From positions 493,923 through 557,922 of the forward strand of contig ML996698.1 in NCBI GenBank assembly GCA_010356995.1: a stretch of DNA of 64,000 bases, written 5' to 3'. Under the pieces are notes generated by a model, which saw only the letters and a program-made list of their open reading frames with translations, was not told the origin of the DNA and searched no databases. A program made the position numbers and the translations under genes. Source of the DNA: Trichodelitschia bisporula (lineage: Eukaryota). Every line of letters begins with the position of its first letter. The stretch's first letter is position 1. Below are positions 40,389-59,954 of the stretch, in pieces.

Positions 40389-42757
40389 GCAACGTCGATC
40401 TACCTTACAAGCAGCGGACAACATTTTTCAGTTTTGCCTTTCAGCATCCGACAACGACCTTACCATGTCATCTCACTACGAGTTCCCTTGGACCAACGAG
40501 CAACAAAGAACAACACGAACGGCCTTTCCGGTATCTTTCCTATCATGCCATCCCCCTATTTCCATTCACGATGAGTGCACGCAACCTGGCGTCGCTCATC
40601 GGGCATCATCTTTCAGCTTCCACCGTCTTTTCCTTCCTCGTCTCGGCTTCCAGCATGGCATCGTGCGGCGTGGTACGCGCGGACGTGGGCGGCCGGTTTT
40701 GTTTTCGGTGCACAGGCAATGGCAGGAGCAACATGGTAATTCAAAAGTGTAATGTAGTCTGGTGTATCTGGCATATCGTCCCTCGCTGCAGATGTCCTTT
40801 CCTTCCTCGGGTCTATGCGAGAGGCCAAGTGCGCGCCTGCATATTGCATTCCGGCGATGGATGACCCATGGTCTTCATCCCCGAGCAATCGGGTTGATGC
40901 CGTGCATACGAGCAGTCTGCTGGTCGCCATTCGCGGTCGCTTCATCGTCGTGCATGTGGTAGGTGGGGGCGCTAGCGGCTAACGCCGGTGGTTGTGGGCT
41001 GTCACTTTATTTCAACGCCTGCGATCCGATGGCACGCCCGCGATTGCCGCCTCGTGGGGTTGAGGACGATGCGGTGGTAAGGCGGCTAGGGCTGGGCTCG
41101 ATGGGCTGCTGCAGGGGGCTTTTTTCTGGGTGGGGAGGTGGGAAGGTGTGGTCAGCGCCGCGGCGATGAGATGTTGGGTGTGGGGACGGCTGGGGGGAGT
41201 GCGTGAGGGAATATGGGGATTGTTCTTGAGTTGGTTTGATGCTTGTGGACACCGAAGTCTTCGATCGGTTTGCTTGATGAGGAATTCGCACAAGTGAACC
41301 CATTATCATTTCTCGAAAGGGAATATCAACTCGGAGCATATGTGAATTGAATGCTTCTGATTGGTCTGGGACTCGATATGCGCGCGATTGAAGTTGGTTA
41401 CTTCCCACGCTGGCCTGTGAAGAGCTGATCACTAAACAAGAGAGGCGTTCAGAGGTATCAACTTTCGACGCACTACAGCTGGATCGTGAACGCCATCATA
41501 ACGGAAAGGCGACAGGGTGCTCCGTGCTGTGATATGGTCTCCCGCCAGCTAAGTCATATGTGCATAGGCGAGCGCTTGCGGATGTGAGCGTTTGCGCGAA
41601 AGCGATCCACGATCTGCCATCTGAAACCTGCGATGATGCTGTAATTGGTCTCTACATGATGTTCTGTTCGTGCCCATAGCTTCATGGCCGTTAGGAGTGG
41701 AGAGGTATTCTTCGAACAGTTGACGTGTAGTTGACGTGTAGTTGACGTAGTTAACGTGACCAGCGACGCCACTTGGATAAATCATCGCAACATCATAAAG
41801 ATGCTCCACACTCCGCTTCATCCATAGCACGACGAAACATTCACAAGCGAAGTATATGCAGAGCCTCAAACCTCATAATGACCTGTCACGATGCACAGTG
41901 ACGCCATCTTCGCCACTGATGATGACAAGGACAAGGCTGTTGGATGGTTGATCGGACGTCGTGGCGACATGATCGTAGATCGGGCTTGACCAATGGCGGG
42001 CGCGAGGGGGAGCCACGAAAATGTGCCGGCTCCGGCTTTTCGGGCCTTTTTGGCTTTGAGTGATTGGAGCCGGGGTCGGGCGGGATGGGGATGCCGTCGG
42101 CTGTTGGATTCGGCCGGGTTCCTCGGCTTTACGGTGAGAGGGGAAGCGAGAGGAGGTGAAGAGGAGGAGGGGGATGATGGGGGGTGAAAGGAGTGGAGGA
42201 CACTCACACCGACTTTATCCTCTCGGCGAAAAGCATCAGCGGAATGCAGGACAAAGCGGGCGGTCAAGAAAGATTCGCCGGCATTGCATCAAGTCACAGG
42301 AGATGTGCAGCTGCCAAGCCCGTTAGCCACGGGGCTCGGCCACTCACTGTCAGGTCCGAAGTCACAAGTGTGGCGGCAAATAGGCAGGGAAAGCGGGAGA
42401 AGAGAAAGAAAAAGCAAAAGGGACCAGCGGCCGACAGCGCCTCGTTGCAAAAAAAAGGCCGCTAACCAAAACTCAAAGTCCATCCCACGCTTGTGATTCT
42501 CCGACATCCACAAACCTCCACTCCTATTTTCTCATCCACACTCCCTCATCTTCTCCCCACACTCATCAATCCGCTACACCTCTATCTCTAACGTCTGAAT
42601 TGGAGTTCGACTGCCGTCGTTAACTATCGTCGTCTGCGTTCTTCCCTCCTTTGCAAGGGACTGCCACACAGCGACCGCAGCCCTCGGCTTCGCGCCCTGC
42701 GCCTAACCCTCTGAACCGATAAGCCCCGCCACCCCACTCTCAACCACCACCCGCACA

Positions 42758-43372
42758 ATGAAAGTCTTCAAGACGAGCGCCGAGTTCGACTACTCATGGG
42801 AGGAGGTGTCGACGGCCAACTGGCAAAAGTACTCGCCATGGAACAAGATGACGCCGCACGTCATCGGCGTAGACACCATCTCGCGGCACGTCGACGCCGC
42901 AACCGGCATCGTGAGTCCCGCGTCGAATCTCGTACGCGACCTGTTCTAACCGCAGCAGCTCCGCACTGAACGCCTCATCACATGCCGCCAGTCCGCGCCG
43001 CGCTGGATCCTCGCACTGCTCGGTGGGGATGACACGAGTCTGGTGTACGAGACGAGCTACGTCAATCCTGCGACACGCACCCTGACCATGGTCTCGCACA
43101 ACGTCACCTTGAACAACGTGCTCTCGGTCCGTGAAACGGTCACCTATTCGCCGTCAAGTCGCTCGCCTCGCGCCGCTACGCATTTTGAGCAGAAAGCTGA
43201 GATCACGGCGTTGTGTGGCGGGTGGCAGAAGGTCAAGAACAACATTGAGCAGTTTACTGTCGAGCGCTTCCGGGAGAATGCGCTTAAGGGCAAGGAGGGG
43301 TTTGAGATGGTCCTCGCCCGTGCCCGAGAGGTGTTTGCTCAGGAGCGCGAAAGACAGGTGATGAAGATGTGA
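42758..43372 (+). CDS. UPS2: PRELI/MSF1 mitochondrial intermembrane lipid-transfer protein, 2 exons
   Basis: FDYSWEEVSTANWQKY..HVIGVDTISR..GI / LRTERLITCRQSAPRW..VYETSYVNP..VRETVTY..FRENALKGKEGFE. Confidence 0.9.
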
Positions 43373-44033: not shown

Positions 44034-46994
44034 CTACCCATTCCCAAGAAAAAACTCCAACCCCCCCTCCTCCCCACCCAAACTCTCCAAAAACCCCATC
44101 CCCTCATACCAATCCCCCCTCCCACCCTCCCCACCTCGTCCCGACGCCGTGGCCTCAAGCCCGCCTTCCCCTCCCCCACCCGCAACCTCGGGCAACGAAC
44201 AAAACACCGGACTCACCGGCGTCAACGTACTCGGAAACCGTCCGGGCCCACTACTCCCCCCCGCCGAGTACGGCCCCCCATATCCCTGACCCCCCTCATC
44301 CCGCACCTCAAACCCGCCACTCTGACTCCCAGGACTCATCTGCACCCTCCCCGGCCCAAGGAGCGGCGTATGCGGCGACCCCTCCGTCCTCCGCCGTTTC
44401 CGTGGATTCGCAGCCCCAAGATGCGGCGGCAGGAAGTATCCCCCTTGTCCCCCTTGGGGCGTCGGATGTGCTAGCACCGGCGTGTGCAGCACAGCCGGAC
44501 TCCCCGGGTGCGGACTCCCCGCCTCCCACCCCTCCCCACCAGCCACGGGCCCAGACATAAACGGCAAGTAAGCGCCATCGAGTCCCCGCCCTGGATACCG
44601 GTCGAAGAAGTCGTCCTGTGCGAGGGCCGAGCCGGCGCTGCCGCGGTACGCGGGACTAGCGCTGCCGTACGGATATTCGGGGGGCGGGTACGAGGTCGGT
44701 CCGTGCGGCCCGCCCGGTCCGGTTCCTGACCCGGCCGTGCTACTTGTCGGAGAGGCGGATGTGAGTACGCTGACGTGTGCGGCGTACACGGCTTTGAGGA
44801 GTGCTGCGTGATGGGCTGCACATGCCCAGGCGCGGGATGCGGTGGCGAGGGCGCGCATTTCCCGGGCTAAGGCTTCGGCGGCGGTTGTGGGGGAGAATAG
44901 ATCGGCCGTGCTGGCGTCTAGCCTGTAGTGTGCGGCGTGGACGTGGATTGTGCCTGCTGTCGCCAAAGCGAACGATGCAAATGCTGGGATAGGGGCGGGT
45001 GGCCCCGCTGCCGGGCAGAGATGTGGTGCGAGGTCGGCGAGCAGGTTCGCGTGCCGGATGCACTCTGCCGTTGCGGCGATTTGCCATTGGTGGTGGGAGG
45101 TGGAGCGTAGTAGGGCGAGGTCGAGGGGGAGGAAGGGGCGGTAGATGAGAGCGTGGACGGTGTGAAAGGTCGCTTTGGCCAGGAGGAGGGTAGCATGAGT
45201 TTTTGAGCCGGGCGTGTGCGCGGGCAGGGCGGAGAGGGCTTCTGCGGTTGCGGCGTCCCAGAGGTCGAGGTCGCGCCGTATTTTGGAGAGGGTCGATTGC
45301 GCGTGCCACGGGAAGCGCGCGTCGCCTTTTACGCCCCCGGCCGCGAGGTACCGCGTTGCGAAGCCGAGGATGCGTACAATGCCGATTAGCATACCTGCTG
45401 CGTCCCGCAGGTGTTCGGAGGCTGCACCGCCGGGGACCGGGTGCAGGCCTGCGCCGTTGGCGAAGAAGTCGCCTTCGCCCTGCGGGGGGTGGTCGGGCGA
45501 GGAGACGGCGGGCAGGCGCAGTGCGATAGCGTCGTCGGGCACGAGGTGGGGCCGTTTGCTGCCCGTCGCGCTGAAGCGGTCGAGCAGGTAGACGGCCCAG
45601 AAGAGGCGTCGCCTTCCTTCGCGCTCGGGGGGTGGGATCCGGGGGTCCGGGGGGAGTTCGCGATGGAGGGAGAGGGCGTGGGACATTGTTGTTGCGAAGG
45701 CTGATTTGGGAGTTAGTTGAGGGGGGCTGGGGAATGGGGGTGGCTTACAGAGATACATGTACGCCTGCTTCCCACGGCCGGTTTGGAAGCTCGCTTGCGC
45801 GAGGAGCAGGAGCGTTTGCAGGCCCTCGATGCTCGGCTCGTCGACGTCGAGCTCCAGCCGTGCGCGTCGTCCGTACTCGATGCCTGCTTGCACGGCTGTG
45901 TCATAGGCGGCGTAGTACTGCGGTGCGTATCTAGGGATGTCAGCCTCGTGATCTCGTCTCTCGTCTCTCCCTTCACAGCCTCCTCCTCCTCCCACGCCTG
46001 CTAAGAAAAAAAAGGCACACAAAAACGCACCTCGCACTAACGGCAAAAATCGCAAACGCCAAATGGCCCGGTAACTGGCTCGTCTGCAGGCGCTGGCGCG
46101 TGCTCGCCTCGTCGAGGATGAAGTACGGCCGGCCGTGGAGACAGGCGAAATACGCGTCGAGCAGGGCCTCGAGATAAGGCGCTTGCGGCGTGCTCATGGC
46201 GTCGGCGGTCGTGAGCGGCGGGAGGAGGTGCGTGTCGTACGGTGAGGTCGCCTCGATGCTCTCGAGGGCTTGGATTCCGTTCGTCGGGCGATCGTGCTGC
46301 TGGTGGTGCTGGGCCTGGTGATGACTTTGCTGCGGCTGAACATGCTGGCTCTGCTGATGGTGCTGCTGGCCCTGGATTTGGTGATGATTCGGACCCGGTT
46401 GATGGTGTTGCTGCTGCTGCTGTTGATGGTGCTGGGGCATGGCGTTCATGGCGTTCAGGGCGCCGAGCAGCGGCTTCGTCTCCTCGAGGCCGGCCATGAC
46501 GGGCGTGCCCTCGCCCTCGTCGGTGAGAAAGGCGGCTACGTCGGCTGGCGAGCTGGATTTCTCCTCGTGCAGCTGCTTCTCCAGGAAGTCGACGCGTTTG
46601 ACCAGCGCTTCGAGGGCGTCGGTTTTGGGACCGCGCTTCTTGGGCACGGCATCTTGCGCGCGTAAGTTAAGGGGGTTAATTGGGGAGGTTGGGACAAACC
46701 GTAGATGCAGTCGCAGGCGAAGAGCTTGCATGAGTCGCATGCTGGGAGTAGGCGGTTGCATTTGATCTGCGCCGCTGGTCAGTCTGTGATCTTCGTTTCG
46801 TCTTCGTCTTCGTCTTCCGTCTTTTTCATTTCTCCTCGTCTTCGCCATCTTCGCCCCCATCTTCGCCAAGTCACGCTCATTTGACGACTTGCCTTCCTCT
46901 TTCTGCAGCTCTTGCAGTTCATCACCTCGCGCGGCTCATTGCTCAGATGCCGTGCCGGCAACCGATCGATTCCGATCTGCGGCCGCGACGCCAT
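44034..46994 (-). CDS. Zn(II)2Cys6 transcription factor with fungal-specific TF domain, 5 or more exons
   Basis: Spliced cluster CKSCRKRK / [22 protein letters not shown] / [12 protein letters not shown]-rich linker, [31 protein letters not shown]. First intron is GC-AG (46892-46767). Confidence 0.92.
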
Positions 46995-47461
46995 GCCGCC
47001 CTCCGTCGTCCCGTTCGCCGAGTGGACGAAGAGGCCTCCTGGCGGGCTAGGGAAGGGGGTGGGGAGGTGGGGGCTGTGCAGTTTGGGAAGGGAGGGAAGG
47101 AAGGATGGAGGGGGGGCAGTGGTGTCCAGTGGGACTGAGGGAAGGGACGAGGGAGGGGTGGATGCGGTACGGGGAGGCGCAGCAAGAGGCGATCTAGCGG
47201 CCGAGAGAATTGACGATCCGATTCCCAAGCGTGGGTGGAGCAGTGCCAGCCGAGACACTTGTGTCGTAACACGCGATCCGATCTGCGGTTCGCACGACTC
47301 AATTGGGACAAAGGCAGGCGTTAGGCGATGCTCGGTTGGCGGGGGCCGGATACGGATGAGAAGTGGCGATGGGTGGGTGAGAATGGTGATGGTGTTGGCA
47401 CTGGCAATGGCGTGGATGGGAATGGGATGGATCAGCCGGGTCAGGGAGTGGGGAGCGTCAC

Positions 47462-47681
47462 NNNNNNNNNNNNNNNNNNNNNNNNNNNNNNNNNNNNNNN
47501 NNNNNNNNNNNNNNNNNNNNNNNNNNNNNNNNNNNNNNNNNNNNNNNNNNNNNNNNNNNNNNNNNNNNNNNNNNNNNNNNNNNNNNNNNNNNNNNNNNNN
47601 NNNNNNNNNNNNNNNNNNNNNNNNNNNNNNNNNNNNNNNNNNNNNNNNNNNNNNNNNNNNNNNNNNNNNNNNNNNNNNNNN
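47462..47681. other. Assembly gap (220 N)
   Basis: Run of N flanked by G-rich low-complexity sequence. Confidence 1.
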
Positions 47682-50376
47682 GGATTGGAGGGTAGGGGGG
47701 GAAAGAGCGTTGGTCGAATGTCGTGAGTAGCCGAACAGACGGGCATTGACCATCAACACTGACACCGACAGCCTGCCTTCCCCTCACGTCCATCCCGCGC
47801 GCCGGGCCCTTTGATAGGCGACCATACCCGCCCTCGTTCGGGTAAGCTTCTAAGCCCAGTGAACCCGTCGGCCTTGCGCCCTTCGCTTTCGCAGCACCGC
47901 TCCGCTCTGGGACTGCCTTGTGCGTCCGCCGGTTTCTCAACTCTCTCGCTGTCGGCCGAGTAAAAATAGCATATAAAGAAGTGCGCCCGCGCCCGCCAGC
48001 ACCGTGTAGATGGCGCGCACGGCCCGCGGCTCGTCTGCCTCGTACGCGGCGGCTGGTGTGGGAAGGGGAAGGGGTGTATAACGTGGCGCACGGTCGGCGG
48101 GCCAGGGGTGGGAGCGGGCATGGGAAGGGACGTCGAGTCAGGTACGTAGAGCGGGGGGGAGGGGGAGGCGGATGGAGGTGCATCGCGCGCCGCTGCTAAC
48201 GGTTGCGATACCTTGCATTCTACTACCTCATCGCCATCTCGAGCCCGATGCTGCCCGCTCCTCCTCGTCCATATCAAGATCCTCATCCCCCTCTTACCGA
48301 ACAACCAGCCCACCCCTCCCTCTCCCTCTCCCATTATTCACCAAGTCAATAAACACCCACGGAGCGCTGTCCCCCGGGCCCAAACCAGCCTAGCCCGCAC
48401 CTCAAAATAGGTTCAGTCCAGGCAGGCATTCTAGAATACAGCCCTGAGCGCAGAGCACCCCCCATATGCCCGCCCGCCAACATCCAGTCGCAATATACCC
48501 ACCCGCGGTTGTGCTGTGGGTCGCACGCAACGCTACGCGCACCTGAGACATGCGCGAGGTGATGTTTGACACGCGCTGGCCCCTGGCATTGATGGGTTTG
48601 GCAGCGGGCGTGCAGCACTCACTGCCTCGCGTGGTGAGCTGCAGTTGCAACTGCAGACGGCCGTTGCCCGTCGTCTACCCGCTCGCTTGCTGTCAATCGG
48701 GGTGCAGAACGAATCCCGCGCGTAACCAATCGCAGACCACCGCGCCCATCGGGCCGAGGCTGACGTCCTGCACGTGGCCGCCACGGCGCAGCCCCGCGCC
48801 CCACCAACCGCTCCCGGCGGGAGTGGCGCGTGGCGCAAGGCGCAAGGCGGAGAAGTAACGACGGGGGACTTGCAGCAGCAGCGTAACGAGTTTGAGCATT
48901 GGAGTCGATTAAGGACAACGACGGGTAAAACTGCAAAGCCATAACCCACGCGGGAGCATATAAACATTCTGCCCCTCCCTCACCCCCCGTAATCAGCGAC
49001 CCGTTTCCCGCACCCCCGTCTCGCATCCGCAGTGTGAAACTGAGACGCGCGTGGCTGCGATCTGACGTCTTCTAGAAAAGCCAAAAAGTTTAATCGCATC
49101 CGAAGCGGCGCGGCGAACGCTCGACGCCCGCCAAAAAGGCCTCGAACCTCACGATCCACTCTCTTCATGAGCAGCCCTACTCGATCTCCCCGCCCCCTCG
49201 CACCCGCCGCAAATAAAGCTCCTCATTCACCTCGGCGCCTCCTCATCCCAAAAATAGATAGACTTTGCGCTAGCTTGATCGCTACTCTTGAGAATTCAGG
49301 GCTGAAGAAATATGCACCCTCTTCTCCCGCTCTTCTGGGTGCGAGACAAGGCAGCGATTTACGTTCCATGTCCCACCCTATCCCCCGCCGATCTCTTTGC
49401 ACCCCAATCTCGCCCACCGCCATGACGGCGCGCCCGCTCAACCGGCGTCAATGCGGGATGCCGCCACAAGAGTCGCATGGGCGGCCTTACCGCATCGGGC
49501 GCGGGGGACGGTCTCCCGTTTGTCAGTCTCCCCAACGACGATTGATAGCAAACGAAATCACGCTCGACTGAATCGGTTCTCGCCGTTTGGGCCCGGAGAT
49601 GTGCATTTCCCACGGGGCGACTGCATAGGGAGAAGGGGGCGTAGGGCTTGCGCATGATAGCATTGTTGAGAGGAGTAGTTTGCGCCCGGTGGAACGAAGT
49701 GGAACGGGAGGCTATTTTAGGGGTATAGCGGGAGGGCGTATAGCTATGGCGAACAGTAGGCTGGAGCGGTGTGGAACGAGAAGGAGGAAAAGAGGGGGGT
49801 AGAAGTAGACTCGCACGCTTCGTTGCGCTGCGCTTCGTAGTTCCCCCTCCGCCGGCCTGCGGGCTCGCGAGCGTACCCGCTTCGCGTCGCCCAGTATGCT
49901 GGCCCCTCACCGTACGGCCCGATTCTCTTCTTCCGGCATGGCGATCCCCCGTACAGCTCGTATTCCACCCCGCCTGACATCCGGTAGTCTGGCATGCGAC
50001 ACAAGCGCCATCCTTCGCAGCCCCTCAACCGACGACCAGATTCATGCTTGCGCCCGCCAACCGGGAACCCGTCGACCGGGCGGCGGGTCATGACGACTAC
50101 AGACGGACGGACGGACACGCGCTGTCGCACCGGCGGTAAATCCGAGATCCTTGGTGCACCACACAAGACTCATGACGACATACGACACACAACGTACACG
50201 AACACACTGACGACGCGCGCGAGCGCCAGTGCAAAGCAACAGAAATAGACATGACGAACTGGATATTAGAGACGCCAAAAGCAGGCCGCACGACGCTTGC
50301 TCTACAACCATGACCAGGATATCACCACCGGTCATCACCGGATATCATCACGGCATGTCACCCATTCCGACCACCT

Positions 50377-52692
50377 CTAAAACCCCCCTCTCCTCCTTCC
50401 ACCCCCACCAGCCAACCTGACAAAATCATACGGCACATTCTGCCCCACAAGCAGCCTCAACGTCTCCACCGTCGTCCAAGCATCCACCTCCTCCGCATCA
50501 ACCCCGCGCCACCCCCACCCCACCGCCCGGGACACCAACCCTCCCTTTCCACCAAGATCAACGAAAACCCCCCCAGAACCACTACCCCCAGCCCCCCTCA
50601 GCACCCCCTCCACAAACGCCCGCTCTCCGTTCCCAACACCTGCACAGCAAACCACCGCCCCCACGCCGCCCGGCACACTCACATCCTCAACCCCCCTCAC
50701 CCCCCTAACCGCCGCCCCCACCCCACCAACAACCCCCTCAAACCCGTACACAAAAAGAGGTCCCGCGCCCAACTGCGCAAGCGCAAACAGCGCCGCACCC
50801 GCCGCACCGGTACTACCCCCAACCACCACCGCCGCGCGGCCAGAAAACGCGCTCGGTACGGACCCCGCAACAAGCGCCCCGCGCACACCTTTCCACGCCG
50901 CATTATCCGCCACACACACCCCGTCCCGCCCACCAGCGATAAGCGTATCTACCAGACCAATTGCACGGGCCGCGGGCGTCGGTTCCGCGGCGACACCCGC
51001 ACATGGTGCAGGGGGCGCGAGGACGGCGCCGCCGAAATCGGGAGCCGCGAGGAGGGCAGCTAGAGCTGCGGGACCGCGCGCGTCGAGCTGCGTGAATGCA
51101 TGCGGGAGGCTGAGCTCGTTGAAACACTGCTCATAGAAGGGAGCTTGGGCGCCGAGGCCGAGGCCGAAGAACGAAAGGCGCGGAAGAGCACCCATGGTGT
51201 GCAGCGCCGCATTAATCTCCGCGGCCGACAACTGCCCCGGGGCGGCGATCATAGGGAGGAGGGGATGGGTTATCGGGGTGAAGATTTTGTTGAGCGAACG
51301 GGAGAGTTGGCCCACTGGGCCCATGTTGAGGCCCGAGAAGGGCGGCGAGGGAGACGAGGCGGCGAGGTGGGCGCGGAAGTGTTCGAGCGCCCAGTTTTCG
51401 TGCGGCGAGTCCACCAGTGCGATCATCTTGATGACGTCGCCGTAGACAGCGCCCTGGGTGAACAGTTCCATGGCGCGGGGCGCGGCCCACGTCCACGCGC
51501 GGCTGAAGTCGTGGAACGCAGAGATGATCTTGCTGTGCCCCTTTTCGGTAGCCAGCGCCGCGCGGATCGGTTCTGGAAGCCAGAGTTCTACGTCGATGTA
51601 CTCGCAGCCCCACTGAATAGCTTTGGACAGGTACGTGTAGAACAGGCCCGGGTCGTGCATGGGGAAGCGCCCGTTTTCCGCCGTGCATCGTGTCGTGTAG
51701 ATAATAGGCAGCTCGGTACGCTGCCGCAGGAGCATTAGTTGCTCGCCTACGTATGCGAGGCTGGGCACCGGCGCGACGCTCCCGTCCGGCAGCGTCTCCT
51801 TAAGCAGATCCACCCGCAACTCCACGGCATCCGCGCCAACGGACAAGATCTCAAGATTTGGAAGCGCAGCATGAACATCCGGAAAGGTGGTGCTAATAAA
51901 CGTCGTCCTTGCCTTGCGCGCCAGCTGTCGATGCGGCCGCACCTGCCCGAGCACGAACGAGAGAAACCGTGCCAGATCCCGTCGATAAAACGGTGCGCTG
52001 GCGAATAGGTACTCGTAGTCGACTACCGAGCCGAGCCAGTCTGCCTCGTCCTCCTCGTCCACGCAGCGGAGCCGAATCAGCGTGCGACTTGCGCCTGAAC
52101 GTTTACGACTCTGAGTCCGCTGGGCCCAGTCTGAGGGCCGGCAGTCGGATGCGGCGAGCCCGGCGATGGTGCTGGGCGGTAGGGAATCAGCATCGGTGGT
52201 ACGCTCGATAGGTGCCCATGGCTGGCCGAGAACGTCGGCGACCAGGGGGAGAATGTGTCGTCGCCGGGCGGGGAAGATGATGAGTAGGGAGGGCTTTTCG
52301 GAGTTGAGAAGCGCAGGGATGGCGACGGGCCGCCGGCGGGGAGGGGTGGAGGAAGAAGATGTCGAAGGTGGGGAGGCGGAGGGATGACGGTGCGTGTGGT
52401 TGGTGGTCGAGGCGTAGGCTGGATAGATTCCCGTGTAGCCAGTGCTACTGCCATCGCCATTCCGCCCGTCCCAGTCCTCCGCACGGTGTGGTGAGACGGG
52501 TGGTGAGACGCCAGTGCTACGGCTCGTCGAACGCGATGTTATGGGACGGGCGGTATGGTTTGGTGAACGGGTTGCGTGTGTGGAGGATGGAGGAGTGGGG
52601 ATGGGTGAGGGGGAGTAGGAATGGGTTCGTGAGGGACCGGAAAGGAGGGTGCTAAGTGGGGGAAGGAGCGGGTGTGCTGGGTGTGGGAGCAT
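50377..52692 (-). CDS. AROM C-terminus-derived protein: type I 3-dehydroquinase domain plus degenerate shikimate kinase and dehydrogenase regions
   Basis: GADAVELRVDLL, LPIIYTTR..ENGRFP, EYIDVE, IISAFHDF, GDVIKM, NMGPVGQLSRSLN..TPITHPLLP..AAPGQLS. The dehydrogenase-like tail (DFGGA, ARAIGLVDTL, DNAAWKG) lacks catalytic motifs. Single 771-aa ORF; start uncertain. Confidence 0.88.
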   Translation of the reverse strand: MLPHPAHPLLPPLSTLLSGPSRTHSYSPSPIPTPPSSTHATRSPNHTARPITSRSTSRSTGVSPPVSPHRAEDWDGRNGDGSSTGYTGIYPAYASTTNHTHRHPSASPPSTSSSSTPPRRRPVAIPALLNSEKPSLLIIFPARRRHILPLVADVLGQPWAPIERTTDADSLPPSTIAGLAASDCRPSDWAQRTQSRKRSGASRTLIRLRCVDEEDEADWLGSVVDYEYLFASAPFYRRDLARFLSFVLGQVRPHRQLARKARTTFISTTFPDVHAALPNLEILSVGADAVELRVDLLKETLPDGSVAPVPSLAYVGEQLMLLRQRTELPIIYTTRCTAENGRFPMHDPGLFYTYLSKAIQWGCEYIDVELWLPEPIRAALATEKGHSKIISAFHDFSRAWTWAAPRAMELFTQGAVYGDVIKMIALVDSPHENWALEHFRAHLAASSPSPPFSGLNMGPVGQLSRSLNKIFTPITHPLLPMIAAPGQLSAAEINAALHTMGALPRLSFFGLGLGAQAPFYEQCFNELSLPHAFTQLDARGPAALAALLAAPDFGGAVLAPPAPCAGVAAEPTPAARAIGLVDTLIAGGRDGVCVADNAAWKGVRGALVAGSVPSAFSGRAAVVVGGSTGAAGAALFALAQLGAGPLFVYGFEGVVGGVGAAVRGVRGVEDVSVPGGVGAVVCCAGVGNGERAFVEGVLRGAGGSGSGGVFVDLGGKGGLVSRAVGWGWRGVDAEEVDAWTTVETLRLLVGQNVPYDFVRLAGGGGRRRGGF

Positions 52693-54630
52693 GGCGACGT
52701 ATGATGGATGTGCGGTGTAAGGGAAGTAGCATTGGTGGTGATGATGACGGGTGAGGCGGTGTTAGACTGGCACTCGTGATCGTGATGGTGAGTCGCCTAG
52801 ATGGAGGGAGTCTCGGCCACGTCGATGGCGATGCCGAAACGTATGCAGCCCGAGATACGTGTTGCAATGTGTCGTGTCGCTTTGAGGCCGTGAAGTGTCG
52901 GTTCGTCGCCAGTGTTGCGGCCGCGATGTGGTGTCGAGTCGGCGACTGTAGTCGGTCAAGCAGCTGGAGATCTTGCAAGTCAGCCTCACTCTGCGTCTCC
53001 CTCATCCCCAATCTCGCAGCCGCCGATGGCCCGGACCGCGCGCGTGCCAGAGCTTCAGGCTCCTCGGTCATTGAGCGGGAAATTGAAGCTCCATCCTTCT
53101 CACCACACCGTTATGCCATGCCTAGCAGCATCGTAACATCTCCTCCCAACTAGGTCTCCCAAACCTCAACCGCGCAAAGAAAACCACACCACTCACCCAC
53201 AAAATCCCATATGCCCTCTCTCGACACACTCTCAAAACCTAGAGGATCCGCGATCAAGATCCGCACTTGACCCACGTCCACGCCCACTAGAACTACCACC
53301 CCAATCAACCGCCAAGCCCACGGGTCCCTTGAACGCTGCCGACGAATCCACGCACCCTTCCCGTGAATCCACGCTCAATCACTTCTGCTGGGCCCAGACG
53401 GGAAAAAGGTGGGAGAATCGCCGTCGCTTGGCGGGCGGGCTGGGATATTCGCCCCCCGGAGAGCGAGAGCACGAATCCGCCCGATAGAGAATTGAGCAAG
53501 AGAACCGTTGCGCGAAAGGCAGCAATCCGGTTTGGCTGTAGGGAGAGCGAGGAGCGAGATGGCGAGGCCGATGCCAGGGGAGGAGTATCGCGACCAGGGT
53601 GAGGAGTCGCAGTGCGGATCGCAGATGGGATGGACGAGAGAGCGATGCTGCGCGGAAAGGAGGGAAAGAGAGAAACAGGAAGCCAACCCACGCACCAGAC
53701 TGGAGATAGCCCAAGCAGGATAGAGTGCTTAGAGAGTAAGTATCTCGCGGGCAACGCACAATCACAAGCCTGTCGTCGCACCCACCACCACCACCACCCT
53801 ATCAAACCCGTAGAGTCTAGCCAAAATGACATGCCTATCAAACCCGCGCCGGGAACCGGGAGGAACGCCGCGGTACGTACCTACTGCACTATCCACGCCC
53901 CCCCCCCCCCCCATCCCGACGTGGGAGCCGATATCAATAATGTCGCCGAGCCCTGCCCCGCAAACTCCCCTCCATTCCCCGCCCGCTAGAACTAAACTTC
54001 CACCCCCTCCAATCACCACCGTGTTTCCACCCCCCCAAGTGTCCACCCACCACCACCAATACCCCACTGTACCCGCAACGGCCCCCACAGCCACCCGCCG
54101 CAAGCCCAGTAGAACTGTCCAGTAGAAGCAATCCGTACGTAACCCTAGAGGCTAGCGCAAGGCTCGCTGCCAGCCTCGAGCTCATCCCCTCCAAAACACC
54201 ACGCAATCTTGTCCGAAAAGCCGGTCGTAGCCCTGATCCCGTACCCTAGCGTAAACCCACCCCAAATCTCAAGATCCCATCTCCACGGCAGTTTCCTGCG
54301 GCCGGATGGCCGGCGTGGCCGAAACGTTGCACGCACCGACGGTACCACACACTGTAACGCATCCCGGCTTGTGGCATCGGCCTGGACTGTACAGCGAACC
54401 GTGTACTTTGTACTGTTGTTACGAACTACTTGTGATTTGCTTTACAGCGGCGGGCTGCGCCGAGGGCGCGAAAAGGCGCGAAAAACACACGGCGAACAAA
54501 GTTCAATATCAAGCGGTTGTTACTCCAACTATCAAAACAACGAACATCCCTAACACATACACAGACACTCCAGTACAATCCAACCCCATCCGTACGTAGT
54601 ACGTAGCCCCAGCTCCACCGCTCCACCGCC

Positions 54631-54746
54631 CGCAACGCGCGAAACGCAACGCACGAAACGCAACGCACCTAACGACAAGTCCAAGCATCACGACGAGTCC
54701 AAGCATAACGACGAGTCCAAGCATAACGACGAGTCCAAGCATAACG
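54631..54746. repeat. Adjacent 14-bp (x2.5) and 18-bp (x4) minisatellites
   Basis: cgcaacgc(g/a)cgaaa units followed by four copies of aacgacgagtccaagcat. Confidence 0.9.
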
Positions 54747-55140
54747 TTAACAACGACAAGCAAGAAGGGAAGATAATAAAAGGCACGAACCCGCCCGCAT
54801 CAGCCACCCCGCGTCCAGACCTCATCCACGCGCCCCACTCATAAAGTACGCACTATGTGCACACCCACGGAGAAAGCAGAGTAGCGTGCGGAATGACATT
54901 CCCCAACCTACCACTTGCACCGCCGCCAATCTGCCCAGATCCCACGGCAAACCGGCCATCCGCGCCGTCGTCCGTCCGTCTCAATCCCCGGCAAATCATC
55001 CACCAATCACCACCCCACGGCTCATCCCGAACTGAACCCGATCTAAGTTCCAGCCATGTGTCATGCCACGCGAGCGCCCGTCACGTCTTGCGTGCGGTAC
55101 GGCTCGGCAGCGGGCCGTTGGCCGGTTCTTCGGGCAGTGC

Positions 55141-57062
55141 CTAGCTTGCCGGCGGGGCCTTGCAGCTGAAAGGTTTGCCGGCAGCACCGTGGGATATGCG
55201 TTTCATTGACGCCCACATCCCTAGGATGCACTGCGGTGACTAGTTAGCATACATTCCCGGAGAGAAGTAGACGACATGATGGGAAGGTACGTACAATGAC
55301 AAGGCCAAGCAGAATCATCGCCGAATTGAACGCCGCGAGCGCGATTCTCCGCGCCGGACCTTGGAGCGTGAATCGACGTCTCGGAACAAGCAGCGTGCCC
55401 CGGTTGAGGCTGAGCCAGAGACACCCAGAGAAGCCGTCTACACCATTAGTACCGCTCATGAGTCTAAACGGGAGGACTCACAGCTAAACCATCCGCCAAA
55501 CAATGCGCTCACAAACGCGAGGATGAGCTCGAAGCTCGGTACTGCCTCAGCAATTGCCCACGCAATTACCCACGACCCGAAGACGATGGCGGCCCACGAC
55601 AAGGTCGCTCGCTTGCTCTGCTCGTCCGCGACCTTGGCGCCGGCCTTTGTCACGCCCCACAGCCGGGAGTGCATCATCTTACACACGACATGCCCGTTCA
55701 CAGCGCCACCAATGATGACGGTCGGCAGCGCAAGGCCTGACGCCACTTTCTTCAGTATCGGTGTTGTGGCACTGAGAGCCGGTGCTGGCACGCCAGGCCC
55801 CGCGAAGTGGTAGATGACCACGGCAGCGATGACGTAGATCGTGATGGCGGTGGACTGCAGCATCAGGACAGCCTTTTTGAAGTCCCTCGGGTCACGCAGT
55901 TCATCCGCGAAGCCGAAATAGGTTGAATGGCCGGTGTACGACAGGATGATGTTCAGCACGGCCGTCATGGCCTCAGCCAGTCCAGGCTTGGTCGTCAAGG
56001 CTGTGCCGAGGACGGGCGCAGGCCTCTTTGCGACGACGCTCATGATGAAGAGCACCGTGGTGAGGATCGAGAGACAGGCTGACGGGTTAGTCAGGTCGGG
56101 ATATTTGCTTTGGGGAGGGACACTCACATGCGACCGAAAAGTACGAAATGTGCTTAGACGATCGTGGCGCGGTAAGAAGGGCGCAGACGACAACGCCACA
56201 GGCTGAAAATACTATGGAGCAAAGGGCGGAGTTGCTCAGGGTGCTGAGGATTAGGCGGAAAGTGGTGACGTGTGCCGCCATGATGGTTATCAAAGCGAGT
56301 ATCTGGGCCATTCCGAGAATCTCTCTTCCCCAAACACCGCCGAGAATGAAGCCAGCGTCGCTCATGTTCGTGACTTCGGGATGAGCAACCTTGAAGTCAC
56401 CGTACACGAGGCCTGTATAGCCGGCGATGAGGCCCAGAGTGATTATGAGGATGATCGAGCTGTTCGAGTTAGGCACTGGTACTGATGGCATGCAGTATTT
56501 CTTACGGTATGAGGCCGATCACCGCGACGACGTGTGGCAGCGATAATATACCCAGCGATATACATCCCGCAATCATTACTTCTACATGTCAGCGTTATTC
56601 CGGCCCGGAGTAGTCAAGACATACACAGCCCACAGTGCCTAAGGAAAGACGGTCAGCTTCAGGGTGGCTACAACGACAACGACGATCCACTTACCTCCAC
56701 TCCATATTCTGATACCGCCCCAGACCAGGAGCTGTCGGAGGCGGTTTGTCGCCGACGAGTTTCTCGTCTGGAGCATCGAGAGGAATGTCCTTCCACGACA
56801 GTTCCTGACTACTTCGTAGCGGAACGAGGGTATTGCCGCTGTCGACCGACGGAAGAGAGGCGACTTCGCAAGAAGGGATTGTCGCTTCGAAGTGCTTGAG
56901 GTCTGGTTCGAGGGACGACGTCTCTGAAGCAGGGAGCGTGATGACCTCGCACGGAGGGTTTCCCGCTTTGAGCAGCTTGTCATCGTGCTCGGAAGTCGAC
57001 GACTCCGAATAGCGAACATCGTTGGGAGCAGGGGAAGAAGTTGGAGTAGTGTTATCCGCCAT
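55141..57062 (-). CDS. Amino-acid permease (Aa_trans/AAAP family, Mtr-like neutral amino acid transporter), 7 exons
   Basis: YQNMEW / RHCGL / LMIAGCISLGILSLP..IGLIP / SIILIITLGLIAGYTG..HPEV..MSDAG, SYTGHSTYFGFADELRDPRDFKKA, IAEAVPSF..ALFGGWFS / YG..W, final exon ending PFSCKAPPAS*. Confidence 0.9.
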
Positions 57063-59149
57063 TGGAGGAGCTGAGGTATGTTCGTGCGGGGGAGAGTCGA
57101 GAGGGGGAGGATGGCTTTATGCGGGATGTAGTGGAGAGTGGGGAGGAGGGGAATGGGAAGGAAGGGCCCGACGTAGGAGCAGGCCACATACTGTGGGAGG
57201 ACCCGGGAGTGGATGGGAGTCAGCGATAAGGAAGATGTTCAAAGAATGGTTGACTAGTGGACCTGATCCAGGGATGGCCATTTGTTTTGGCGGGATATGC
57301 TCTACCCGATGCGGGGGAGCGACAGCTAGTTGGGGATGGAGGGAAGGGAGGACCTAGGGCAGGGCAAGCTGTGGGCGCGGTGTTGAGGGTACGGTGACGA
57401 CAGTGAGCCGGCGGAATAATGACTTAGCTTCACGGCCAAACACGGCTACCGGAACGTCTAGGGATGGGCAACGTGAGCGACGTGAGCGATCGTGGGCAAC
57501 GTGATAAGGCAGAGATAACACAGAAGAGAGTGGAAGGGGCATCGCATGAGAGAACACGGGGTAATGAATGGAACTGGAGTGGGAAGCAGCGGATACAATT
57601 CTTCTGCAGACGACGGTGATGTGAAGTATGGTAGAAGATTTGGAAGAGTATGGATGAGTTCGATAGACTACCATTTTTTTGAAGATGCGAAGCTGATTGA
57701 TGTTCCATGAGCAATGAGATTGTCACGATATCTCTGATAATGGACGCGGGTATTGACGGGGTAGATTGATGTTGCGTAGAAAACAGTTTGGCAGCTGTCG
57801 TGATGATGACGATGGAGGTTGGTGTTTTAGCCAGAGTCTGGGCGGTAACACATCCCCTTTGAGATCCCTCCCCCTCGCGTGGACCGTGGACCATACCAGA
57901 TATTGTAGTACTTACCGGTACAGTCCCGCTTATTAGGGGAAAGTGTTCGACTCCGCTCTGGAGCCAAGAGATATGCGGTTGGTGAAGATGTGGATGGGGA
58001 TGGAGATCTGTGGAGCTTGATTGTGTGGAGACGAAAGATGGGAGGTCCGTTGATTGAAGAAGGGGAAATACTGTAGTTCTAGTATATTAGACGCTTTCCC
58101 CATCCCTTCTCATCACCAGCATCACCTTATGTCCATCCCACCCCCATCTCTTCACTAATGCTCCTGCCACTCTGCCATTCTGCCACTCCAATTGGCACTC
58201 ATTCTCTTCGTTCCACGTCGAAGCTCACCGTCAAGCCTGGACTGGCCTGGCCCTCGGAGATGCATCATTCCGTTGTCTGCCGAGGGGGGGCACAGTTAAG
58301 CAGTCAGGCTCAAGGCGGCTGATCAGCAGCAAGCATACTACCTTCGTAGTTCTTCTATCCATCCCATCACAAACCCCATCCCATCCCATCCCATCACGTC
58401 CCCGTCTCCCCTTCTCCCTCCCTGCATCCCCGTAAACAACAGCGAAGCAAAAGGCTCGCAAGATGGCTCACAAGAAGACAGGGCTATGCCGCAACGTTGC
58501 GCCCGACATTACTATGGTAGTAGGCCTGTCAAACGCCCGAGGATATCTGCAGCATTCCGCATCTATCGGTCTGTCTACCTTGTCCTCGGTGCCCCCTCCC
58601 TTTCCCTTCTGCATCTTGCCTCCTGCAGTCTCTTTCGGCTGCAAGGCGTCGTCCTCGTCCTCGCATATCAATCAATCAATCAAAGTCATCTAGCGAAGGC
58701 AAGCAAAAAAGGCAATCGAAGGCACGCACTCAAGTCCCCCGTCCGCGTAACACCTCCGTTCTCAAATAAAAACTCACCTTCCCCATCTCCGCACCTCTCG
58801 CTTTTCCCCGTCACCCCGCAACCTCCTCCCGCAGCTCAATCTCCTCCCCTTTCCCTTCCCCTCCACAAAAAAAAAATAAGAACGAGGAATGAGGCGCCCA
58901 TCGCCTACCCACCCACGCCCTCCCGCTAGGAAAATAAGATAGGAAATAAACCTTCCATTGCACCACTGCCGCCCCCCCCCTCAGCCCAGCCCCCCTCCAA
59001 AAGTCCCAAACCCTGTCCGAATCGCGTACGCGTCCACCCGCCGAGTACATAAACCCCGAACGCGCCGCAAACAACCTCGTCCCCCCCCCCATTCCCCGAA
59101 AACCCACCCCAAAACCTAACCCAAAAACCACAACCCTTAAAACGCAACG

Positions 59150-59954
59150 ATGGTAGAGCTCCGCAAGCGCAAAACCCCACCTCCCGCGCCGACGCGCCCA
59201 ACCCGCACCAAGAAAACCGCCGCCCCGGCCGCCGCAAAAGCTGACGCAAAAGCTGACGCAAAGCCGCGCGCCGGCCGCGTCACCAAAGCTAAAGAGAAAG
59301 TATCCAAGGCTGCGAGCAAGGCCGCGGCCGCCGTGACAGGCAAGACCGACGGCAAGGAAGAAGAGGAGAAGGCTGCAGAGGCGGCCCCGGATGCCCCCGC
59401 GGCTGTGGCTTCGCCGACCGGCCCCCCGAAAGTCGGAGATGTGATCTCGCTCGAAAGCTTCGGCGGCGAGGTAGAAACGCATGAGGGTACAAAGGTCACG
59501 CTCGCGCAGCTGGTGGAGGAGAGCAAGGCGGGTGTTGTGCTGTTTACGTATCCGAAGGCGAGCACGCCGGGTTGTGAGTTTGCAACCCCCCTATGCTTCG
59601 AATGGTGAAAAATGCTAATCAAAGGTAGGCACGACACAAGCCTGCGCCTTCCGTGACCAGTACGAGCCGCTCACGGCGACGGGACTCGCCATTTACGGGC
59701 TCAGCGGGGATTCGCCCAAGGCGAACACAACCTTCAGGACGAAGCATGGGTTTCCGTACCCGTTGCTGTGTGATCCGGGGTATGGGCTTATTGGCGCCAT
59801 TGGGTTGCAGCAGGTTGGCGCGAAGAAGACGAAGAGGGGCGTTTTTGTCGTGGGTAAGGGGGGCAAGGTTCTTGCGGCTGAGCCGGGTGGCCCCCTGCCT
59901 ACGGTGGAGGTGGTGAAGAAGGTTGTGGCGGGGATGGAGAATGGGGAGGCTTAG
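59150..59954 (+). CDS. DOT5: Peroxiredoxin Q/BCP family with basic N-terminal extension, 2 exons
   Basis: VVLFTYPKASTPG / CTTQACAFRD (PxxxTxxC with CxxxxC), GLSGDSP, YPLLCDP, RGVFVV. NLS-like LRKRK at the N-terminus. Confidence 0.92.

Follow-up and report, generated by a model that had tools for sequence, protein, structure and literature searches.

The window considered here is the whole 64,000-nucleotide stretch of Trichodelitschia bisporula DNA that was analysed (assembly GCA_010356995.1, contig ML996698.1, positions 493,923 to 557,922), and the genes of interest lie between its positions 44,034 and 57,062. As a preliminary description of this DNA had stated, three genes are present there on the same strand, which is the minus strand: an amino-acid permease, a 771-codon open reading frame (ORF) and a Zn2Cys6 factor, the last two separated by 3.4 kilobases (kb). 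The ORF and the factor are best explained as a whole as the GaaX/GaaR repressor-activator module for galacturonic acid (pectin), with a probability of about 0.93; judged from the sequences, the identity of the two genes as gaaX and gaaR appears slightly more secure still. In Aspergillus niger, GaaR is described as activating pectinase, transporter and gaaA-D genes through galacturonate-response elements (GAREs), while GaaX blocks the pectin regulon, such that loss of GaaX results in constitutive expression (PMC6528562). A further mark of the module is that loss of its activator abolishes growth on galacturonate. The inducer in that organism is reported to be 2-keto-3-deoxy-L-galactonate, a product of pectin breakdown (PMC6528562; PMC5488244).

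The protein encoded by the 771-codon ORF corresponds to the C-terminal part of pentafunctional AROM, as the preliminary description had proposed. Its sole Pfam match is PF01487 (E 8e-50, in a scan up to E 0.1), AROM chains are its matches in the PDB (E 3.6e-70), and its AlphaFold2 model (pLDDT 90.8, pTM 0.92) can be overlaid from end to end on the stretch of Candida Aro1 that holds the kinase, dehydroquinase and dehydrogenase domains (TM 0.83-0.84; Z 37.5 and root-mean-square deviation 3.0 over 604 residues). A degenerate shikimate-kinase fold (residues ~130-250) is followed by a dehydroquinase-I barrel (265-497) and a degenerate shikimate-dehydrogenase fold (~505-765). These are preceded by a low-complexity extension of about 115 residues that is missing in relatives (636-750 amino acids, aa). 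The catalytic features read from the sequence earlier were confirmed: the dehydroquinase domain retains its His (H394, in AFHDF) and its Schiff-base Lys (K422, in GDVIKM), and comparison with the AROM of the same genome shows that the kinase P-loop and the SxS, TxPxK and NTD motifs have been lost. The first two domains of AROM are absent. The dead dehydrogenase domain is conserved through to the C-terminus in 72 family members; here its C-terminal Rossmann part (window 50377-50760) is Gly/Val-rich and diverged from relatives, with the final 30 residues conserved. Contigs of two runs, X1 and X2, which represent one sample and whose RNA status is a tool's guess, bear on the transcript. One contig per run spans 50735-53897 and omits 225 bases with GT-AG ends (52972-53196), leaving the ORF part (50735-52971) unbroken. 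The spliced leader is at least ~980 nucleotides long; an ATG at 53210 starts a 9-codon upstream ORF that crosses the leader intron, and a second leader ATG lies near 53832.

Assignment of this protein to GaaX depends on residues known from mutants. Table S3 of PMC6528562 gives 49 wild-type residues of the 697-aa A. niger GaaX (its entry GA469GS being taken as G468-A469), and 45 of these agree with P0409, a protein of Aspergillus ellipticus, in three ungapped blocks with constant offsets of 8, 9 and 16 (hand count). Because these residues fit in register and the last residue of P0409 maps onto GaaX residue 697, P0409 can be regarded as GaaX. Between the window protein and P0409 identity is 48% (651 aa, 564 bits), as against 33% between the window protein and the AROM of its own genome (558 aa, 213 bits). 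Agreement of the window protein with A. niger GaaX extends to 26 of the 49 tabulated residues; at the 18 sites of GaaX missense loss-of-function mutations, 14 residues are unchanged and three others differ conservatively; these mappings, like the locus counts below, were done by hand from tables. A. niger GaaX itself is not present among the 120 listed relatives or in the 10 clusters examined, and a Penicillium member of the same family, P0461, carries the source name GaaX-like. A. niger is described as having four AROM-derived repressor/activator modules, of which gaaR/gaaX alone is arranged head-to-tail and, unlike the others, has a repressor in which PF01487 alone is recognised (PMC10512348). 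Both hallmarks are found here. Several Aspergillus annotations of 1400-1850 aa (P0523, P0537, P0548, P0573) cluster with GaaX, and a further one, P0242, is a single annotation in which GaaX runs on into GaaR, the two tandem genes most likely having been joined by the gene caller. Among the matches listed, the closest named relatives of both regulators are from Dothideomycetes.

The activator gene was modelled by hand from splice signals and homology as five exons (46994-46893, 46766-46700, 46652-46031, 45930-45749 and 45700-44034); the contigs of X1 and X2 contain no gaaR splice junctions and are uninformative on its introns. The position of the first intron is shared by 24 of 80 metagenome loci with a GT donor, and a GC donor, as in the model, is found in none of them. 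The database model P0122 picks an upstream GT donor for this intron and thereby loses two cysteines, half of the zinc cluster. With the intron placed as here, the cluster has the spacing CX2CX6CX6CX2CX6C, which is also that given for A. niger GaaR near residue 26 (PMC5111758). Identity to the activator of Aspergillus japonicus, P0541, is 41% over 496 aa and 62% over the N-terminal part, the DNA-binding region. Published gaaR primers, read by hand, give three peptides, LLVDITR, VHCLLYR and DFLDRY, which are present exactly or with one change in P0541 and P0242, and slightly altered counterparts stand at the aligned positions of the window activator. By way of the published GaaR domain limits (139-518), residue W361 of A. 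niger GaaR would correspond to W369 of P0541 and to W445 of P0122, which is invariant in 53 of 53 relatives.

The linkage of the two genes is conserved in other genomes, a check that the preliminary description had put forward. In 41 of 80 metagenome loci, gaaX is followed on its own strand by an exact GaaR motif, as it is in 33 of the 42 that have at least 3 kb of downstream sequence. Among the matches listed, three pairs of the two genes bear consecutive locus tags, and in A. japonicus their accessions are consecutive. At two loci with no gaaR after gaaX, large downstream ORFs were considered as GaaR and rejected; each of these loci has a sugar-transporter gene ~4.4 kb upstream on the opposite strand (L061:4272-5612 and L071:4117-5607), which may encode a galacturonate transporter in a lineage where the module has been split. 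A chorismate synthase gene lies 6 kb downstream of gaaX at one locus only (L033:18120-19214), probably by chance.

The promoters of the A. niger regulon are described in the literature on that organism as containing GAREs with the core CCNCCAA. Here, four CCNCCAAT sites lie within 1 kb upstream of the gaaX transcript, in the orientation that is commonest in the orthologues; across the window, 17 such sites were found versus 10.1 expected from shuffles. Upstream sequence of 1 kb or more is available for 62 loci of gaaX orthologues. The nine-base form of the element, which we take to be TCCNCCAAT, is present within 1.2 kb upstream of gaaX at 53 of these, versus 2 for the reversed motif and ~2.6 predicted from the genome rate. 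Short tandem repeats (an 18-base unit present about four times, plus a shorter unit) occupy window positions 54628-54750, between the GARE-like sites.

Genes on which such a module could act are present elsewhere in the genome. Family-level profile matches identify a DHDPS-family aldolase gene divergent from a Gfo/Idh/MocA gene, and an enolase-family dehydratase; from their likeness to these genes, and for the first two also from their divergent arrangement, we presume these to be gaaC, gaaA and gaaB, respectively. The divergent pair occupies L106:200-3574 (G000 C3:643000-649000), with one CCNCCAA at 1663. Pectinases are represented by 12 GH28 matches (~7 genes) and two pectate-lyase matches. 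Another aldolase, on contig C6, was rejected as gaaC because it sits in a rhamnose-type cluster. A short-chain dehydrogenase, an amidohydrolase and a DHDPS-family aldolase (L107:2082-5818 and L100) resemble the L-rhamnose pathway, and an L-rhamnonate dehydratase-like gene is found elsewhere on their contig. In an exon-by-exon search of the genome, whose assembly is possibly incomplete, type II dehydroquinase (PF01220) had no match and Shikimate_dh_N (PF08501) was found in AROM only. Since neither a type II dehydroquinase nor a second Shikimate_dh_N was found, no quinate module is evident. An intact AROM is present, AROM and GaaX are the sole matches of their kind, and three of the four AROM-derived modules of A. 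niger seem to be absent. The expectation that the pair would govern a regulon other than qut is thus upheld, in that the pair is the pectin module and no quinate-pathway genes were found in the genome.

Physical binding of GaaX to GaaR has been proposed for A. niger (PMC6528562). Structure prediction of the complex, which had been suggested for the window pair, yielded a contact: when GaaX (P0002 residues 3-634) was folded with the middle region of GaaR (P0122 residues 203-565), ipSAE was 0.63 versus 0.00 for the best of three controls, with at least 81% of contacts shared among runs and a partner pLDDT of at least 79. This mark is reached by 51 of 78 solved complexes versus 2 of 108 mismatched pairs, and in a eukaryote benchmark by 39 of 65 solved pairs lacking a similar complex versus 2 of 126 unrelated pairs. 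Eleven residues of each protein are in contact. Those of GaaX include I282 (I190 in A. niger) and N525 (N438), and among those of GaaR is the W361 equivalent, in contact with the residue equivalent to I190. In A. niger, I190N and N438D/E (3 of 23 missense isolates) in GaaX (PMC6528562) and W361R in GaaR are constitutive alleles. The published alleles were not supplied to the model; by hand calculation, the chance that 2 of 18 sites fall among 11 of 632 GaaX residues is ~0.04, and that the single activator allele falls among 11 of 363 is ~0.03. A search for solved structures related to the middle region of GaaR found none, so recall of a similar complex by the model is unlikely. The complex model supports the proposed binding, and the predicted interface is probably correct. 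What is new here is the predicted contact surface, which lands on known constitutive A. niger mutations; a literature search covering few subscription papers found, judged by title and abstract, none on an AlphaFold complex of GaaX and GaaR, and none linking GaaX with a Schiff base.

Several observations weigh against assignment of the pair to the GaaX/GaaR module. The identity was reached indirectly, through Table S3, primers and proxy proteins that stand in for GaaX and GaaR of A. niger, and the pair was set apart from QutR and TanX by published descriptions of their modules. GaaR is diverged (38-50% identity to relatives). The exact nine-base site occurs only once upstream of gaaX here, 2.3 kb ahead of the ATG, and window-wide the motif is at chance (2 found versus 2.4 expected). 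At the candidate targets the signal is weak as well, with one core site between the gaaC-like and gaaA-like genes (5 in the locus versus 4.2 expected) and a borderline 10 versus 5.75 around the gaaB-like gene. The GaaR motif is missing in 9 of the 42 loci that extend 3 kb or more downstream (~5 organisms), five motif-negative loci remained empty when rescanned with three mismatches allowed, and the locus counts overstate independence because the loci are redundant, many coming from the same organism. Finally, the predicted interface is small (27-34 contacts), and 7 of 44 blind neighbours reach the same mark.

Among the alternatives, one accepts a true gaaX/gaaR pair and supposes that drift in this lineage has altered its regulon or inducer and may have brought in the permease. 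Such drift would agree with the divergence of GaaR, in which several otherwise conserved residues have been lost, with the weak GAREs at the candidate targets, and with an exact nine-base site (57061-57069) that overlaps the permease start codon. However, the DNA-binding region has stayed close to that of the Aspergillus activator, the four CCNCCAAT sites precede gaaX, catabolic and pectinase genes are present in the genome, and the site at the permease, which extends over the first two ATG bases, fits chance; drift is improbable. Far less probable again is the separate orphan module for sensing dehydroquinate or shikimate that the preliminary description had in mind. The dehydroquinase active site is wholly kept, and such ligands may still bind; however, Aspergillus GaaX proteins retain the same site, the residue fingerprint, gene order, Pfam profile and upstream GAREs are those of the characterised GaaX/GaaR, and more than 1000 family members are found at E <= 1e-10, possibly including AROM relatives. 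The third alternative, in which the protein would be either a shortened AROM copy that simply works as a dehydroquinase or a QutR orthologue, is just as poorly placed: database names ("3-dehydroquinate dehydratase", "aldolase") and a TIGR01093 score of 136.8, just below the 139.3 cut-off, speak for it, but the names are automatic, an intact AROM lies elsewhere in the genome and conservation of the dead dehydrogenase domain reaches the C-terminus, while QutR modules are divergent, with recognisable kinase and dehydrogenase Pfam domains, and no quinate-pathway marker was found.

The locus is therefore an ordinary orthologue of an already known module, that of A. niger GaaX (NRRL3_08194) and GaaR (NRRL3_08195, An04g00780), with which it shares the head-to-tail order, recognition of PF01487 alone, the zinc-cluster spacing, the W361 equivalent, most loss-of-function sites and the GARE-like sites upstream of gaaX. 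Unlike A. niger GaaX, the repressor here has the low-complexity N-terminus and the diverged Gly/Val-rich Rossmann part; unlike A. niger GaaR, the diverged activator, as modelled, has 879 rather than 740 aa and a GC-AG first intron, and 3.4 kb separate the genes. The general design, a repressor derived from the last three AROM domains together with a Zn2Cys6 activator, is that of QutR/QutA (Aspergillus nidulans, A. niger) and QA-1S/QA-1F (Neurospora crassa), and to this extent the analogy drawn in the preliminary description was correct. It was also right that the protein is not an ordinary QutR orthologue, as the QutR and QA-1S modules are divergent, have PF01202, PF08501 and PF18317 and control a quinate regulon, none of which applies here. 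TanX/TanR and the uncharacterised NRRL3_07605/07604 module share the activator-repressor design; both are divergent, and NRRL3_07605 is without PF01487, the only domain recognised here.

Positions of all of these features are collected below. The permease at the upstream end, which runs from 57062 to ~55141, is probably outside the module. Its intron is skipped by one contig of run X1. The suggestion that it might belong to the regulon found no backing in its surroundings: one exact permease motif, which matches the window, occurs in 0 of 108 loci, a weak test in which 34 loci had ~5 kb or more upstream of a gaaX match, and none of the 29 ORFs scanned with Pfam, out of 80 listed for six loci, is an Aa_trans match, the neighbours differing each time. 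It looks like a chance neighbour. The window flanks contain genes for a PRELI/Ups-family protein (42750-43372, plus strand) and an AhpC/TSA peroxiredoxin (59150-59954, plus strand), and their motifs are likewise found in 0 of 108 loci.

Table 1. Features of the gaaX-gaaR locus, in window coordinates
Feature	Position	Strand	Basis
gaaR orthologue, Zn2Cys6 activator (5 exons, 879 aa)	44034..46994	-	hand-built model; PF04082 match; alignments
Predicted GaaX-binding loop of GaaR (P0122 residues 438-448)	45297..45329	-	complex model
GaaR W445 (P0122), putative equivalent of A. niger W361	45306-45308	-	inferred mapping; invariant in 53/53
Zn2Cys6 cluster, CX2CX6CX6CX2CX6C, interrupted by intron 1	46700..46916	-	sequence
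gaaR intron 1, GC-AG (GC donor)	46767..46892	-	splice signals; comparison with metagenome loci
Assembly gap, 220 N, gaaX-gaaR intergenic region	47462..47681	.	sequence
gaaX orthologue, 771 aa from ATG, intronless ORF	50377..52692	-	ORF; PF01487; structure model
First helix of dead dehydrogenase domain, residues 515-526, including N525 (A. niger N438); central part of the predicted surface for GaaR	51115..51150	-	complex model; Table S3 of PMC6528562
Type I dehydroquinase domain of GaaX	51202..51900	-	PF01487; active-site residues kept
gaaX long 5' leader, spliced intron 52972-53196	52693..53897	-	contigs of putative RNA runs
Four CCNCCAAT GARE-like sites (54006, 54053, 54923, 55000), upstream of gaaX transcript	54006..55007	+	motif scan
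Aa_trans amino-acid permease, neighbour, probably outside module	55141..57062	-	PF01490; intron 55438-55481 spliced

How the module might respond to its inducer can be considered from the dehydroquinase domain. Nine residues, S267, E291, R293, R335, E339, H394, K422, R465 and Q487, are retained, each at least 90% conserved among the 72 family members; we take them to be the active site by AroD numbering, in which K170, E86 and Q236 are also named in PDB titles. None of the 18 GaaX loss-of-function sites falls in this active site. Such an absence would be expected if the site binds the inducer, because mutants in it would then be non-inducible and thus missed by a screen for constitutive expression. 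The dehydroquinase domain was already suggested as the inducer site by the 2018 paper. On balance, the pocket seems a likely place for the inducer to bind. The interface residue P477 directly precedes the AAPGQ loop, presumably, by analogy with AroD, a lid that closes over the substrate.

In the mechanism proposed here, GaaX would keep GaaR inactive by gripping the conserved loop around the W361 equivalent in the middle region of GaaR. Three elements of GaaX would form the surface: a dehydroquinase helix (with the I190 equivalent), the loop at the C-terminal end of the barrel, and helix one of the dead dehydrogenase domain (with the N438 equivalent). The inducer would occupy the intact dehydroquinase pocket, and the lid loop after P477 could couple binding to release. 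Free GaaR would also induce gaaX through the upstream GAREs, creating a negative feedback loop. A dehydroquinate- or shikimate-type inducer, as first envisaged, does not agree with the A. niger inducer of this module, 2-keto-3-deoxy-L-galactonate. A bolder and rather doubtful version makes GaaX a chemically live sensor: 2-keto-3-deoxy-L-galactonate would be bound as a Schiff base at K422, or in its ring form as a mimic of dehydroquinate, with dehydroquinate maybe accepted too, and closure of the lid would free the W361 loop of GaaR from the predicted I190/N438 surface.

Were the live-sensor version true, it would be the first residue-level mechanism for AROM-derived repressors, and it could link the sensing of pectin to the state of the shikimate pathway. 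The predicted interface accounts for three independent constitutive sites and names further candidate contacts, among them E434, K435, E439 and P387 of A. niger GaaX and the Phe two positions ahead of W361 in GaaR, while from the intact pocket one would expect non-inducible mutants, a class invisible to a screen for constitutive ones. The locus also corrects database labels that call such proteins dehydroquinases or aldolases. Interface and pocket both matter for inducer-free production of pectinases in A. niger and for the older QutR/QutA question.

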